From Chloroflexota bacterium (GTDB taxonomy: Bacteria; Chloroflexota; Dehalococcoidia; GIF9; AB-539-J10): a stretch of DNA of 29,902 nt. Numbering within the stretch: the stretch's first letter is position 1; every line of letters starts with the position of its first letter. The position numbers and the translations under genes are program-made. The notes beneath the pieces were generated by a model. That model was not told where the DNA came from, did no database searches, and saw only the letters and a program-made list of their open reading frames with translations. Location of the stretch: assembly GCA_015222295.1 (NCBI GenBank), contig JADFUZ010000133.1, positions 1-29,902 of the forward strand, written 5' to 3'. Shown here one piece after another: positions 7,029-14,373 of this stretch.

Positions 7029-7226
7029 TCACTCCACGCCGAGTTCCTTTTCCCGCAGAATGGTCTTGATCCTGGCGATATTCCTCTTCACCCTATAGAG
7101 CTCGCGGTGATTGGCCAACTGGCGTGTTGCCAGTTGAAAACGAAGCCTGAAAAGCCTCTCGTGAGCCTCTTCCAGCGCCTTGACTATCTCTCCTTCAGTG
7201 AGAACTCGGATTTCACTGGCTTTCAA
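7029..7226 (-). CDS. rpmC: 50S ribosomal protein L29
   Basis: [13 protein letters not shown]...IARIKTIL; TTG start at 7226 behind AAGGAG; 65 aa. Confidence 0.95.
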
Positions 7227-7641
7227 GTCCCGCTCCTTCTCTGGCGACAAAGCTAGCAGCAATAGGTAGTTTGTAGCATGCCAGGTGGACCGCCCTTCGA
7301 GCCATGTCCTCGCCAATGCCAGATAGCTCAAACAAGATTCTACCTCGCTTCACTACGGCTACCCAGTGGTCCGGAGGACCCTTTCCTCCACCCATCCTGG
7401 TCTCGGCCGGTTTCTTGGTAACAACCTTGTCCGGGAAGATGCGTACCCACATCCGACCCCCATGCCGCAAATACCGCACAAGAACACGCCGCGTCGCCTC
7501 AATCTGCCTCGCCGTTATCCAGGCAGATTCCTCAGCCTTCAAAGCAAAGTCACCAAAGGCGACTGTCTCCCCCCTGTGGGCTCGTCCTTTCCGCCGCCCC
7601 CTATGGACCTTACGATACTTTACTCGCTTCGGTTGTAGCAC
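7213..7641 (-). CDS. rplP: 50S ribosomal protein L16
   Basis: [28 protein letters not shown]; GTG start. Confidence 0.98.
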
Positions 7642-8281
7642 TTCCTCTGCTCACCTCAGGGAATACATCACCCAGATAGACCCATACCTTGATACCAATA
7701 CGGCCCATCACCGTACGAGCCTCAACGAAACCATAGTCTATGTTAGCGCGTAGTGTGTGCAATGGCATCTGACCTTCGTGCAGCATCTCAGAACGGGCAA
7801 TTTCACGCCCGCCAAGCCTTCCGGCGCACTTGATCTTTATGCCCTTGGCACCCGCCTGTCGAGTCCGAAAGGCTGCCTGCTTCATCACTCGACGGAAAGG
7901 TACTCTGCCTTCAATACGGTCAGCCATGTTTTGAGCTACCAGGCAAGCCACGAGCTCAGGGCGCTCGACTTCCCTTACTGTCAACCTGACCTTCTCCTTA
8001 CTGACCTTCTCCAATTCAGCCCGCAAGGCTTCCACTTTTTGCCCCCCTCGGCCAATCAGGATCCCAGGGCGGGCGGAATACACTGTCACACTCACCTCCG
8101 CCCCCGTCCGCTCAATTTCCACACGAGAAATAGAACATTCCCGGGATTTTCGCTCGATCACACGACGCAACGCAAGATCCTGGCACAAGAGCCGAGCATA
8201 ATCCTTCTCTGCATACCATTTCGCCTGCCACCACTTGGTAATTCCCAGCCTGAAACCGAAAGGATGTACTTTCTGACCCAA
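7610..8281 (-). CDS. rpsC: 30S ribosomal protein S3
   Basis: [44 protein letters not shown]. Confidence 0.98.
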
Positions 8282-8282
8282 A

Positions 8283-8615
8283 TTACTTCTCCTCGACTGA
8301 AACCGTGATACGCGTAGATCGCTTCAAAATAGGACTCACCCTTCCCCTTGATTTTGGACGAAATCTCTTCAGGGTACGCCCCTCCTCAGCGAGAATATCA
8401 GCAATCTTGAGATTGCCAGTTGATAGTTGAAAGTTGTTCTCGGCATTGGCAGCCGCCGATTTGATTACCTTTGCTACTGCCCTGGCCGCCGGAGTAGGCA
8501 AGAACTTCAGAATAGTCAGAGCCTCGCTGACTTCTCTGCCTCTGACCGTGTTCACTGCCAAGATCACTTTCCTGGGTGAAATGCCTACGTCCTTGGCAAC
8601 AGCTCTCACTCTCAC
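8283..8615 (-). CDS. rplV: 50S ribosomal protein L22
   Basis: ISPRKV, SAAANAENN, LKRFRPKSRGR...ILKRSTRITV; GTG start. Confidence 0.98.
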   Translation of the reverse strand: MRVRAVAKDVGISPRKVILAVNTVRGREVSEALTILKFLPTPAARAVAKVIKSAAANAENNFQLSTGNLKIADILAEEGRTLKRFRPKSRGRVSPILKRSTRITVSVEEK

Positions 8616-8621
8616 CTCAGA

Positions 8622-8909
8622 CTATCTCCTCACCTGCGCAGTCACCTTGGCTCTCGTCACGTGCCCCCTGAATGTCCGGGTGGGCACGAATTCCCCCAGC
8701 TTGTGCCCAACCATATTTTCAGTGATAAAAATCGGCACGTGCTTTCTTCCGTTGTGCACAGCGATAGTATGTCCGATCATAATTGGCAGCACCGTGGAAG
8801 CTCGAGACCAGGTTTTCACCACTGCTTTCTTTCCCGAATTGCTAACCGCTTCGATTTTCTTGACCAATTTTGCATCACAGTAAGGGCCTTTCTTCAGCGA
8901 TCTTGACAT
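8622..8909 (-). CDS. rpsS: 30S ribosomal protein S19
   Basis: [25 protein letters not shown]. Confidence 0.99.
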
Positions 8910-8910
8910 T

Positions 8911-9732
8911 CTATTCCCTCCGCCTCAGGATCATCCTGTCTGTCACCTTACGACGCCGTGTCTTGCGCCCCAGGGCAGGCTTTCCCCAGGGTGTCTTTGG
9001 AGGCATCCCACGCGGAGACCTACCTTCACCACCGCCGTGAGGATGGTCCCGTGGGGTCATAGCTGAACCTCGGACCGAGGGACGCCGACCCATCCGTCTT
9101 GTGGTGCCAGCCTTCCCCAGCATCACGTTTCTGTGATCAACATTGCCTATTTGACCAACGGTGGCCCAGCACCTGTGATGAAACCTGCGCAACTCACCCG
9201 AGGGCAGCCGCAACACAACGTACTTTCCTTCCCTGCTCAGGACTTGGGCCGCGGACCCGGCACTGCGAACCACCTGGCCGCCTTTGCCAGGTTCAAGTTC
9301 AACACTATGCACCAGAGTGCCTACGGGAATTGAGCCCAGCGGCAGCGCATTCCCTGGCTTTCTCTCAACGTCTTCTCCTGCCGTTATGATATCCCCCGTT
9401 CCCAGACCCAAGGGCGCCAGCACATAACGCTTTTCCCCGTCAGCGTAGTGAATCAAGGCAATCCGGGATGAACGGTTGGGGTCATACTCAATGGAGGCCA
9501 CTCTTCCCCGAATACCGACCTTGTCTCGCTTGAAATCGATGATTCGGAGTTTGCGTTTGCTCCCTCCTCCTCGATGACGCACCGTTATCACACCTCGGTT
9601 GTTGCGTCCAGCCTTCTTCGCCAGGGGAACGAGCAACGATTTCTCAGGAGCTACTTTGCTCAGCTCCTCAAAAACCGCCCCAACCTTACCCCTTCTCCCC
9701 GGAGAAGTTGGATTATAGATCTTCAGTGCCAT
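8911..9732 (-). CDS. rplB: 50S ribosomal protein L2
   Basis: [29 protein letters not shown]. Confidence 0.99.
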
Positions 9733-9763
9733 AGTTTATCTTCCATCGCCCACAGTCATATTG

Positions 9764-9859
9764 CTATTTATGCTTCCTTTGCCAGCGCGTCTTCTTCAGA
9801 AGCTTCCTGTGTTGGTGCTTCGACATCTTCTTCTTTCTCCACTTAACAACCGATCCCAA
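9764..9859 (-). CDS. 30S ribosomal protein bS22 (AURKAIP1/COX24, mS38-like) small basic protein, 31 aa
   Basis: Read by hand: TTG GGA TCG GTT GTT AAG TGG AGA AAG AAG AAG ATG TCG AAG CAC CAA CAC AGG AAG CTT CTG AAG AAG ACG CGC TGG CAA AGG AAG CAT AAA TAG = MGSVVKWRKKKMSKHQHRKLLKKTRWQRKHK. SD GAGGTG lies 4 nt before the TTG. It aligns without gaps to the mycobacterial bS22 pattern [30 protein letters not shown]. Below the ORF-track length cutoff. Confidence 0.9.
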   Translation of the reverse strand: MGSVVKWRKKKMSKHQHRKLLKKTRWQRKHK

Positions 9860-9924
9860 AATTCACCTCTCATTCCTCGCCAGCTAGAGACCAGGAACGT
9901 ATGGACTGCCGTCTAGCCAGAGCC

Positions 9925-10209
9925 CTAGACACCTTCAAAGAAACCTACTTTGTATCCAGGCTCCAGGCTCACTATCGCTTTCTTCCAAGAGGAACCCGTG
10001 ACTTCTCGCCTTCCCAGTCTCTTTGTCTTTCCTGAGACAGTCATCACGTTGACTTTGGCCACCTTGACTTTGAAGGCCTTCTCAACCGCCTCCTTGATCT
10101 CACGTTTGCTAGCTCCTCTGGCCACCTCGAACGCATACTTATTCGCTTGCTGAAGCAAGGTAGATTTTTCCGTAATCAACGGACGGCGCAACACTTCAAA
10201 CAGGTGCAT
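9925..10209 (-). CDS. rplW: 50S ribosomal protein L23
   Basis: LRRPLITEKST, KVAKVNVM, WKKAIVSL; ATG at 10209 has better SD spacing (GGAGG, 9 nt) than TTG at 10215. Confidence 0.97.
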   Translation of the reverse strand: MHLFEVLRRPLITEKSTLLQQANKYAFEVARGASKREIKEAVEKAFKVKVAKVNVMTVSGKTKRLGRREVTGSSWKKAIVSLEPGYKVGFFEGV

Positions 10210-10843
10210 TCTCAATTGCCTCCTGTCCCCAAATACGCTCCATGTTGCGCAACGCAGGAACCGTTACTATCAACATCTCATACGAGAGTAAGTCCAACAC
10301 GTTGAGCAGCGCCGACGGTAGAACCTTCGTTTTCGGTAGATTGCCGGCCGACTTCACCAGACTAGGCTGTGACTGGGCTGTGACAATCAGAACAGACGAA
10401 TCAGCCTTGAGCGCTGACAGGATACCAAGCATTTCTTTCGTCCTCGGCCGTTCAAATTTCGGTTCTTCTACCACCTTCATATTTCCCTCCCTGACCTTGG
10501 AGGAGAGAAGGCACTTCAAAGCCAAACGCCTCATTTTCCTTGGCATGGATTGCCGATATGACCGCGGTTTGGGCCCAAAAACTACACCCCCTCCTCGAAG
10601 GAGAGGTGACTTCTTGTTTCCTCGCCTCGCCCTGCCAGTACCTTTCTGGCGGTAGAGTTTCGCCGTACTGCCACTAACCTCACTCCTTGTCTTGGCGGAC
10701 GCGGTTCCCTGACGCTTGTTAGCGAGCTGTCTCACAACAGCCTGATGGACTACCGCCTCATTAAAGGGCACAGCAAAAATGTCATCCCTGACCTCCACGT
10801 GGTCAGTAACCTCGCCAGGCAAATCGTGAACGGGAATCTGCAC
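10196..10843 (-). CDS. rplD: 50S ribosomal protein L4
   Basis: RQGTASAKTRSEVSG, RQKGTGRARRG, GGGVVFGPKPR; GTG start at 10843 just after the rplC stop. Confidence 0.97.
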   Translation of the reverse strand: MQIPVHDLPGEVTDHVEVRDDIFAVPFNEAVVHQAVVRQLANKRQGTASAKTRSEVSGSTAKLYRQKGTGRARRGNKKSPLLRGGGVVFGPKPRSYRQSMPRKMRRLALKCLLSSKVREGNMKVVEEPKFERPRTKEMLGILSALKADSSVLIVTAQSQPSLVKSAGNLPKTKVLPSALLNVLDLLSYEMLIVTVPALRNMERIWGQEAIENAPV

Positions 10844-10844
10844 T

Positions 10845-11462
10845 CTATCTCTCCACTTTCTCAATGACCAACGATCCTTTTTTCCCCCCAGGAACCGTCC
10901 CCTGGACCAAGAGCAAGTTGCGGTCCGCATCGACTCTGACCACTTGCAGGTTCCGCGCAGTGACCTTCCTGTATCCCATGTGCCCCGCCATCTTCTTCCC
11001 CTTGAGCACACGGCCAGGATCTGTGGTAGCACCAATTGAACCAGGAGCACGATGGCGGTCAGATTGCCCATGAGTTTTTGGTCCGCCGCTGAAATGGTAA
11101 CGTTTCACCACGCCAGCAAATCCCTTGCCTTTTGACAAGCCACTTACGTTTATCAAGTCACCCGGCTTCAGGAAGCCAACGTCCACTCTGTCACCACGTT
11201 TGGCTGAGCCAATATCCTCAGCTCTGAACTCGTGGAGATAAGCAAGCCTGGCTATGTCTCGGAGATGCCCTCCCTCTGGAGCGTTCAGGCGCTTGACTTC
11301 CCCAAAGCCCAGTTGAACAGCACTATAGCCATCCCCCTCTTGTCTCTTTACCTGCGTAATAAAGCAGGGACCTGCCTCAATGGCAGTTACCGCTACGACC
11401 TCCCCGTTCTCCAAGAACAGCTGGGTCATACCTCCTTTTCTACCGATAATGCCCTGTAACAT
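10845..11462 (-). CDS. rplC: 50S ribosomal protein L3
   Basis: GRKGGMTQ, SKGKGFAGVVKRYHF, THGQSDRHRAPGSIG, KKMAGHMG. Confidence 0.98.
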   Translation of the reverse strand: MLQGIIGRKGGMTQLFLENGEVVAVTAIEAGPCFITQVKRQEGDGYSAVQLGFGEVKRLNAPEGGHLRDIARLAYLHEFRAEDIGSAKRGDRVDVGFLKPGDLINVSGLSKGKGFAGVVKRYHFSGGPKTHGQSDRHRAPGSIGATTDPGRVLKGKKMAGHMGYRKVTARNLQVVRVDADRNLLLVQGTVPGGKKGSLVIEKVER

Positions 11463-11469
11463 AGTCTCG

Positions 11470-11778
11470 CTACAACTTGATATCTATCTGTACGCCCGAA
11501 GCCAGGTTGACTTGAGTTAGCGCATCTACGGTCTTGGGAGTAGGCTGTAGAATATCGATGAGCCGCTTATGAGTGCGGATTTCAAACTGCTCCCTGGAAT
11601 CCTTATCAATGTTGGGTGAGCGGATAACGCAGAATTTCTCTATGCGCGTGGGCAGAGGAACAGGCCCAACAACCACGGCTCCACTGCTCTCTACAGCAGC
11701 CACTATTTGCCTCACCGACTCATCAACCAGTCTGCGGTCGAAACCCTTGATCCTAACCCGGACTTTCTGACTGCTCAT
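11470..11778 (-). CDS. rpsJ: 30S ribosomal protein S10
   Basis: [25 protein letters not shown]; ATGA overlap with the fusA stop. Confidence 0.98.
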
Positions 11779-13856
11779 CCGGCCACCTTCGTTCCAGCCC
11801 TAGCCTGCTCCCCCAAACCAGGAGGCAATTCCTCATAGCGGTAGAACTCCATAGTGTGGGTTGCCCTGCCCTGACTCAGGGATCTCAACTCAGTGGCAAA
11901 GCCAAAACTCTCCCCCAGCGGGGCAAAACACCGAATAATACAGAAATCCTCCTGGGTTTCGATGCCATCGACTCGAGCCCTTCGTGCACTTAGATCGCCA
12001 ATGATATCTCCCAGGAACTGGACTGGAGTTACTATCTCCACCTTCATGATCGGTTCCAGTAGGACCGCCTTAGCCTTCGCTACGCCACTCTTCACAGCCA
12101 TGGACCCTGCTACTTTGAAGGCTAACTCTGAGGAATCCACTTCGTGGAAGCTCCCATCACACAAAGCGACTTCGATATCCACGATAGGGTACCCGGCCGG
12201 CCCACCAGTTTCTATGGCCTCTCTGACCCCCGCCTCCACTGAAGGAATGAACTCTCTGGGTATAGCGCCGCTTCGAATTCGGTTCCTGAACTCCAATCCG
12301 CTACCCCGTGCACCTGGTTCGAGCCTGAGCCAGACATGCCCATACTGTCCCCTACCACCGGATTGGCGAATGAATCTCCCCTCAGCATCCACAGGTACTG
12401 TGATAGTCTCTTTGTATGCCACTCGCGGCCTGCCCACATTTACCTTAACCCCGAATTCACGCCACATCCGGTCCACCAATACCTCAAGGTGCAATTCACC
12501 CATGCCCGAAATCAAACCCTGACCGGTCTCCTGATCGTGCCGCACCTTGAAGCTGGGATCCTCATCGCCCAGCTTGGCCAGGACTTCATCCAGCTTGTCC
12601 TCATCAGCCTTGGTCTTAGCCTCAATCGCCATTGAAAGCACCGGCGAGGAGAAATGTATTGGCTCAAAGAGGAGAGGCCGAGCAACATCACAAAGGGTGT
12701 CACCTGTAGTCGTGCCCTTGAGCCCAACGGTAGATATGATGCTCCCCGCATCAGCTTCACCTACCTCTTCGCGACGATTAGCATGCATGAAGTATAGTCT
12801 CCCCAGCCGCTGCTTTTTCCCCTTGCTCGCGTTGAGAACCTGCGCCCCCGATTTCACATTCCCCGAATATATACGCAGGTAGGTCAGCCTCCCCATGAAG
12901 GGATCGGAGACAACTTTGAACGCCAGAGCTGAAAGGGGCTCATCATCGCTCGCGCGGCAGTGAATCTGTCGCCCAGTTCTGGGATCAATAGCGGGAATAG
13001 GAGGAATATCTGAGGGCGAAGGAAGATAGGCCACAACAGCGTCAAGCAATGGTCGAATCCCTCTGCCCCTCAGAGCGCTGCCGCATAGAATGGGCACTAT
13101 TTCACCGGATACCGTCAGCCTTCTGATAGCTGCTTTCATCTGTGAAACAGAAATCTCTTGGCCTTCCAGATACATGAACATGATCTCGTCGTCACTTTGA
13201 GCCAGCTTCTCGACAAGAACCTGGTAGCGGTGAGCCACATCAGTCCTATCACTCTCCGGTATAGGCTCCTCCACGGGCATCAGTTCAGCATCAGCGGGAA
13301 AGACAACTGCCTTATTCTCCACAATGTCAATGATTCCCCGGAAGGAACTCTCCGTACCTAGCGGGACCTGTATGGGTAGAACCCTGGCTCGTAGCCTCCT
13401 CTCAATCATACTCACTGTGCGATGGAAATCGGCGCCAACCCTGTCCATCTTGTTTATGAAACAGATCCTGGCTACGTTATACCTGTCCGCTTGCCGCCAC
13501 ACCGCTTCCGATTGAGCTTCCACTCCCGCCACGGCATCAAGGACCACAACCCCACCGTCCAAGACACGCAGACTGCGCTCAACCTCAGCGGTGAAATCCA
13601 CATGTCCCGGGGTATCGATAATGTTGATGCGGTGGCCGTCCCAGTCACACGTGGTAGCCGCCGATGTAATGGTGATGCCACGTTCCCTCTCTTGTTGCAT
13701 CCAATCCATCACAGCCGTGCCCTCATCAACCCCACCAATCTTGTAGGTACGCCCCGTGTAATAGAGAATCCTCTCTGTCACGGTTGTTTTGCCCGCGTCT
13801 ATGTGAGCAATGATTCCTATGTTTCGTATCTTTTCCAAGGGGAAAACCCGTGACAT
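11775..13856 (-). CDS. fusA: Elongation factor G
   Basis: [44 protein letters not shown]; start moved to ATG at 13856 ([14 protein letters not shown]), 693 aa. Confidence 0.98.
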
Positions 13857-13899
13857 CGTTCCGTCCTTCGCATCAAGTACTGCTCTCACTGTACTAATC

Positions 13900-14373
13900 T
13901 CACCAGCGGTAGTGGGCAAAGGCCCTGTTGGCCTCGGCCATCCTATGTATATCGTCACGCTTCTTGACCGTAGCACCACGGCCCTGAATCGCATCCAGCA
14001 GTTCAGTTGCCAGCCTGTCCTTCATTGTCTTCCCGGTACGCCCCCGAGCCGAGGCAATAAGCCAGCGCATGGCTATCGAACGCCCACGGCCCCTCTCTAC
14101 CTCCATAGGGACTTGATAGGTGGCTCCTCCAACACGGCGAGGCTTAACCTTTAGCAGCGGGGTAGCATTCACAACCGCTTGCTCCAGGAGCTCCGCGGGG
14201 TCACCACTGAGCTGTCGGCTAACCAGATCCATCGCGTCGTAGACAATACGCTCAGCAGTAGCCTTCTGGCCCCTCATCATAACTGCGTTGATGAGCTTGG
14301 CCACAGTAGCACTGTTATACTTGGCGTCCGGAACCGTGGTTCCCCTCTTTGCTTTTCTCGCCCTTCTTGGCAT
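13900..14373 (-). CDS. rpsG: 30S ribosomal protein S7
   Basis: [26 protein letters not shown]. Confidence 0.99.

Follow-up and report, generated by a model that had tools for sequence, protein, structure and literature searches.

The window, by which we mean the whole 29,902-nt stretch of DNA analyzed here from an uncultured cold-seep member of the Dehalococcoidia (Chloroflexota), carries between rplW and rplB of its S10 operon a 31-codon open reading frame (ORF) that is a real gene and a member of the bS22 family. Its position is conserved among relatives, it is under purifying selection, and its placement is limited to one lineage. We are highly confident that this ORF is a single-copy bS22 gene of the actinobacterial/Chloroflexota type, homologous to the C-terminal helix of mS38/AURKAIP1/Cox24, that was relocated into the rplW-rplB junction and whose product is ribosomal by homology. 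The protein is thus a known one, unusual only in its genomic position inside the S10 operon.

The S10 operon of the window lies on the minus strand and is canonical in its composition, with seven flanking products (S10, L3, L4, L23, L2, S19 and L22) confirmed by NCBIfam equivalog models. The earlier note had reported a 192-nt rplW-rplB gap holding a Lys/Arg-rich ORF of 31 aa with a TTG start and a GAGGTG Shine-Dalgarno sequence, and both the coordinates and the exact peptide were reproduced. The ORF takes up 96 nt of the gap, which leaves a spacer of 65 nt on the rplW side and one of 31 nt before rplB. The gap is long by comparison: its median was 9 nt across the 62 Dehalococcoidia loci that lack the insert and 25 nt in 74 loci from other phyla; it was 0-40 nt in most Chloroflexota that carry bS22 elsewhere. 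The gene belongs to the S10 operon by three features: it is on the same strand, it lies inside the rpsJ-rplC-rplD-rplW-rplB-rpsS-rplV-rpsC run, and neither a promoter nor a terminator separates it from its neighbors. Indeed, no promoter-like or terminator-like site was found in the rplW-rplB gap of the window, where the predicted RNA fold was no better than that of shuffled sequences (z-score -0.38) and Rfam returned zero matches. These three analyses gave no sign of regulatory RNA or attenuation in the spacers.

Features of the rplW-rplB region and of the surrounding S10 operon in the window
Feature	Coordinates	Strand	Remarks
bS22 gene, rpsV-like	9764..9859	-	31 codons, TTG start, TAG stop
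Shine-Dalgarno-like GAGGTG	9865..9870	-	ends 5 nt upstream of TTG
rplW-bS22 spacer, 65 nt	9860..9924	-	without recognizable promoter, terminator or structured RNA
bS22-rplB spacer, 31 nt	9733..9763	-	holds rplB ribosome-binding region
rplW (L23), upstream neighbor	9925..10215	-	NF004363, 113 bits
rplB (L2), downstream neighbor	8911..9732	-	TIGR01171, 395 bits
S10 operon context, rpsJ to rplP	7213..11778	-	
rpsJ	11470..11778	-	S10 operon
rplC	10845..11462	-	S10 operon
rplD	10196..10843	-	S10 operon
rpsS	8622..8909	-	S10 operon
rplV	8283..8615	-	S10 operon
rpsC	7610..8281	-	S10 operon
rplP	7213..7641	-	S10 operon
fusA	11775..13994		upstream of S10 operon

Profile searches and comparison with bS22 chains of the PDB bore out the earlier reading of the ORF as bS22 (mS38-like). 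The NCBIfam equivalog model NF047430 (ribo_bS22) matched the product with 64 bits against a cut-off of 34 (E 9.9e-18), over model positions 1-31 of 31. Furthermore, the AURKAIP1/COX24 (DUF1713) profile of Pfam (PF08213, COX24_C), which describes the C-terminal domain of mS38/AURKAIP1, gave a match above its cut-off (32.5 bits vs a gathering score of 23, E 8e-8, profile positions 1-29 of 33). In a control on 14 genomes, NF047430 matched Corynebacterium and did not match Bacteroides. When PDB sequences were searched with phmmer, the best match was the bS22 chain of Cutibacterium acnes (8crx_X, E 1.3e-6), followed by the Mycobacterium smegmatis bS22 chains of the 5o5j/5o61 group (E 2.4e-6) and by the bS22 chain 6dzi_j (E 1.4e-5), all over residues 1-29; mitochondrial mS38/AURKAIP1 matched more weakly than these chains (E 0.005-0.07). 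A six-frame search of the window's genome, a 1.05-Mb metagenome-assembled genome (MAG) that is 76% complete, gave the ORF 59 bits with NF047430, and this was the only match to the model.

The earlier note had described the gene as hidden. This part of the claim did not stand: the gene had merely fallen below the ORF cut-off used for that note, while NCBI nr contains the exact protein and gives its cluster-mates at 90% identity the name 'AURKAIP1/COX24 domain-containing protein [Dehalococcoidia bacterium]'. When 1.84 billion representatives were searched with the single sequence, 36 matches came back at E <= 1e-3, a type of search with too little power for mapping the family of a 31-mer; small bS22-like proteins reached E 1e-5 or weaker, and two of these small matches have contexts outside the S10 operon. 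In many matches from the representative library (P0025-P0059, from public gene calls), the bS22-like part forms the end of a longer protein of 43-119 aa, for which gene callers may have chosen a start codon that is too far upstream.

The window protein has 31 aa and a calculated pI of about 12; acidic residues are absent, whereas Lys occurs 10 times, Arg four times and His three times. Actinobacterial bS22 (M. smegmatis MSMEG_0945 and C. acnes; PDB 5o5j, 5o61 and 8crx) belongs to the same NCBIfam equivalog family, is likewise extremely basic with 31-33 aa, and shares MGSV(I/V)K..(K/R)KKM.K..HRKLL..TR.QR with the window protein over residues 1-29. The two differ at position 26, which is Trp in the window, as is typical of Chloroflexota, and Val or Ile in actinobacterial bS22, and at positions 15-16, which are His-Gln in the window and Lys-Lys in actinobacterial bS22. 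They also differ in location, as the actinobacterial gene presumably lies at a separate locus instead of between rplW and rplB. In other Chloroflexota, bS22 has a near-identical consensus and genomes usually give one match each, whereas the genomic position differs. Judging by their locus tags, the bS22 genes MSMEG_0945, Fjoh_1533 and bb0822 presumably all lie outside the S10 operons of their respective genomes, in line with what the earlier note stated for Actinobacteria. The latter two are those of F. johnsoniae (PMC7797042) and B. burgdorferi (PMC10618245), and the bS22 of Bacteroidota and Borrelia occupies the same rRNA pocket, has about 30 aa, is basic, is sometimes unannotated and can have non-AUG starts (PMC7797042, PMC10618245); in sequence it is more distant from the window bS22. 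The C-terminal basic helix of mS38/AURKAIP1/Cox24 aligns with the window protein, and the literature gives it an analogous position in the small subunit. In contrast to the window protein, the eukaryotic proteins have 70-200 aa or more, with extra N-terminal parts; cytosolic eL41 was undetected by sequence in the comparison with the window bS22.

We observed that the gene is almost universal in the order to which the window belongs, with bS22 above cut-off in 40 of its 41 genomes; the sole exception is a genome that is 67% complete. The nearest named relatives by L23 are MAGs of Dehalococcoidia/Dehalococcoidales. The order rplW-bS22-rplB was found in all 24 related loci, of which 20 come from genomes of the order and four are named Dehalococcoidia MAG loci. 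In related loci with bS22 the rplW-rplB gap measures 116-404 nt, with a median of 133. The upper value belongs to L017 (G024), a relative from the same family, in which about 300 nt separate bS22 from rplB.

For analyses of selection, orthologues were taken from 30 S10-located loci, including five syntenic loci from other families, which gave 27 distinct coding sequences. No stop or frameshift interrupts the frame in any of the 30 loci, which settles in favor of the earlier note the integrity of the frame in relatives. The bS22 frame is open in all 27 distinct sequences, while any one of the alternative five frames is interrupted by stops in 16-26 of them; therefore, the ORF is not a product of chance. 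Among the same 27 sequences, variable sites numbered 16, 11 and 28 of 29 at codon positions 1, 2 and 3, respectively, and the NG86 method gave a mean dN of 0.096 and a mean dS of 1.70 (ratio 0.06; 82 unsaturated pairs). The bS22 frame is under strong purifying selection. Start codons were TTG in 15 of the 30 orthologues, ATG in 11 and GTG in four, so that 19 of 30 are non-ATG, and a purine-rich GGAG, GAGG or GGGG stands at an equal distance from the start in most relatives.

DNA near-identical to the window was found in cold-seep and marine-sediment metagenome runs. In one cold-seep run (X1), a 142-nt contig represents a co-occurring strain variant that differs from the window at five sites. 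Three of these (9770, 9797 and 9815) fall inside the ORF, where all are third-position and synonymous changes, and the other two (9734 and 9756) fall in the bS22-rplB spacer. Another observation from run X1 is that one contig joins 9859 to 9959, skipping 99 nt that comprise the rplW-bS22 spacer and the 3' end of rplW; the shorter side has 29 letters with 90% likeness, and the junction probably comes from another organism or from an assembly artifact. The only RNA-labelled run that covers the gene (X20) contained a 252-nt contig that is 100% identical to 9668-9919 and spans the 5' end of rplB, bS22 and 60 nt upstream. As this run is flagged as probably DNA, the contig was not counted as evidence of expression.

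To delimit the placement at the level of the class, bS22 positions were compared with rplB coordinates and 40 loci were read. We detected bS22 in 61 of 201 sampled Dehalococcoidia genomes, where the sampled genomes of one family as a rule either all had it or all lacked it, and in 63 of 301 sampled Chloroflexota genomes. In the Dehalococcoidia survey, bS22 adjoins rplB only in the window's order (families f1-f5) and in families f14, f16, f22 and f44; the remaining 35 class-level loci that were read have it at other positions. Neither rplW nor rplB was near bS22 in any of 20 Chloroflexota loci read, almost all of other classes. Outside the S10 placement, Chloroflexota bS22 either sits on a different contig or is separated from rplW-rplB by tens to hundreds of kb. 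Since bS22 in other Dehalococcoidia and Chloroflexota was either not found or located elsewhere, with the median rplW-rplB gap of 9 nt given above, the S10 placement is lineage-specific. No match to bS22 was obtained in the nine complete small genomes of family f50, and none of the 74 loci of other phyla had a bS22-like ORF in the rplW-rplB gap.

Where bS22 lies elsewhere, two contexts recur. The first, proB-bS22-proA, was found in families f61, f29, f53 and f63. At eight loci (L103, L104, L110, L118, L129, L131, L133 and L135), bS22 stands between or beside genes for a glutamate 5-kinase-like protein (AA_kinase+PUA) and a proA-like protein of the aldehyde dehydrogenase family. We take the mycobacterial bS22 gene to be near a proline-biosynthesis gene (proC) as well. 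The second context, in families f51, f59 and f55, consists of an HGD-D-like gene, bS22 and gap. Here bS22 is immediately upstream of the glyceraldehyde-3-phosphate dehydrogenase gene (L116, L121, L126, L128 and L130, also L122 and L139), and a gene resembling the 2-hydroxyglutaryl-CoA dehydratase D-component just precedes bS22 in five of the seven loci.

Expanded rplW-rplB gaps also exist without bS22. Long gaps of other phyla (116-151 nt; L044, L061, L073, L074, L088 and L089) were considered and discarded, as they hold no comparable basic ORF. In L074, from an uncultured deltaproteobacterium, the 151-nt gap includes a short tandem DNA repeat that yields three 9-residue units in every frame and is unrelated to bS22. 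In family f57 (L212:915-1313 and L213), a gap of 424-448 nt holds a different conserved ORF of 132 aa without a Pfam match, indicating that a second type of insertion uses the rplW-rplB junction. In family f40, in which no intact bS22 was detected, a gap of 83-98 nt contains an ATG-started frame of 20 codons that runs into the rplB start (L199:1282-1344, G075; L202, G105). Its first 15 residues are bS22-like (MGS.VK.R.KK.SK; tblastn E 0.01); in G105 a stop codon interrupts the frame. Possibly this is what is left of a bS22 gene once located in the S10 operon; it was not retained as a bS22 match since its profile scores were not significant (E 1.5 and 0.39 among 751 gap peptides).

A maximum-likelihood tree of L23, L2 and S19 with 76 rows placed 28 of the 30 S10-placement rows in one group (SH-aLRT 84), and the f22 and f44 rows fell in a neighborhood that this tree leaves unresolved. 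In a quick tree of 96 rows, a branch with 96% support put f44 with families without the insert, away from the main group. The AU test did not reject a single clade of all 30 rows (p 0.81 and 0.83 for the 76- and 96-row sets, respectively), for a group that is defined by the trait itself and with three short proteins that resolve the class poorly. Furthermore, the tree constrained to unite all 30 beat the quick free tree in likelihood for both data sets. These results are compatible with one relocation of bS22 into the S10 operon.

We propose that a single lineage of Dehalococcoidia with small genomes acquired its rplW-bS22-rplB order when the bS22 gene was relocated to this junction. As the gene is embedded in the operon and the gap holds no promoter or terminator, bS22, with its own Shine-Dalgarno sequence and TTG start, is most likely cotranscribed with the core ribosomal protein genes and would be made in step with them. 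In solved ribosomes, bS22 is a bent basic helix in a 16S rRNA pocket (h2, h27, h44 and h45) beside the decoding center, touching 23S rRNA (PMC10618245, PMC7797042). By homology, the very basic helical peptide of about 4 kDa encoded here would be present on the ribosome and would bind at the interface of the 30S subunit, in the h2/h27/h44/h45 pocket of 16S rRNA near the decoding center, and touch 23S rRNA.

Three other explanations for the ORF were weighed against this reading. A genuine peptide of the bS22 family could have another job, such as that of an RNA-binding protein or assembly factor acting in free form, without being a stable component of the ribosome. The protein is indeed dispensable in M. 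smegmatis, where MSMEG_0945 is non-essential, and Lys16, a residue that in M. smegmatis touches the h44 backbone and also modulates the aminoglycoside pocket (PMC10081302), has given way to Gln in the window. Of the 30 S10-located sequences, nine including that of the window have Gln at position 16 and one more has Arg; Lys is present in 69 of 81 Chloroflexota sequences. Lys16 is a functional detail of the mycobacterial protein that does not define the family. The rest of the window sequence, however, is close to the Chloroflexota bS22 consensus, every member of the family in a solved structure is a ribosome chain, and a gene placed among those of the core ribosomal operon speaks for synthesis in step with ribosomal proteins. 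We consider a role off the ribosome very unlikely.

It is extremely unlikely that the ORF serves only regulation, as an upstream or leader peptide that tunes rplB through coupling or attenuation and has no function as a peptide. Such a role could be suggested by its location directly upstream of rplB, 31 nt apart, and by the weak TTG and GTG starts of 19 of the 30 orthologues, but the amino acid sequence itself is conserved (dN/dS 0.06), beyond what mere translation requires, and the spacer has no attenuator-like structure. Moreover, the same protein is encoded far from rplB in other Chloroflexota, and solved ribosome structures include bS22 chains that it matches. As for a chance Lys/Arg-rich open frame in an expanded intergenic spacer, very short basic ORFs do arise easily, and the E-values of 1e-5 or weaker in the search of 1.8 billion representatives were modest. 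This explanation is nevertheless refuted, its probability being practically nil, by an equivalog score nearly twice the cut-off, by 27 distinct open sequences with third-position variation and by the presence of the gene in 40 of 41 related genomes. The preferred reading remains a relocated bS22 gene with a ribosomal product.

To date, structures showing bS22 have come only from Actinomycetota, Bacteroidota and Borrelia, and the evidence from curated models extends its documented range to Chloroflexota. No Chloroflexota ribosome structure or proteome was found, and our literature search gave no paper linking bS22 with Chloroflexi or with the S10 operon. New here are the class-level limits of the placement, the alternative bS22 contexts, the selection figures, the Lys16-to-Gln replacement and the AU tests. 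The S10 operon, elsewhere very stable, has taken up one more ribosomal protein gene in a single lineage, in which the S10 placement provides a useful synteny marker for the clade and hints at production of bS22 in step with the core ribosomal proteins. The understanding of bS22 function is unchanged by this finding. From the point of view of annotation, the non-ATG starts of 19 of 30 orthologues are a reminder that TTG- or GTG-started micro-genes need profile-based calling.

A bolder scenario, which we regard as unlikely, is that bS22 passed in this lineage from a dispensable, separately encoded accessory to a stoichiometric core component linked to the S10 operon, that the Lys16-to-Gln and Lys7-to-Trp replacements reshape the h44 decoding/aminoglycoside pocket, and that the rplW-rplB junction is a recurrent insertion site in small Dehalococcoidia genomes, as the f57 ORF and the possible f40 remnant might indicate. 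The two substitutions, at codon 16 (9812-9814, Gln for an otherwise conserved Lys16) and codon 7 (9839-9841, Trp for Lys7) of the window gene, are family-specific, and the Trp7 variant also occurs in some other Chloroflexota.
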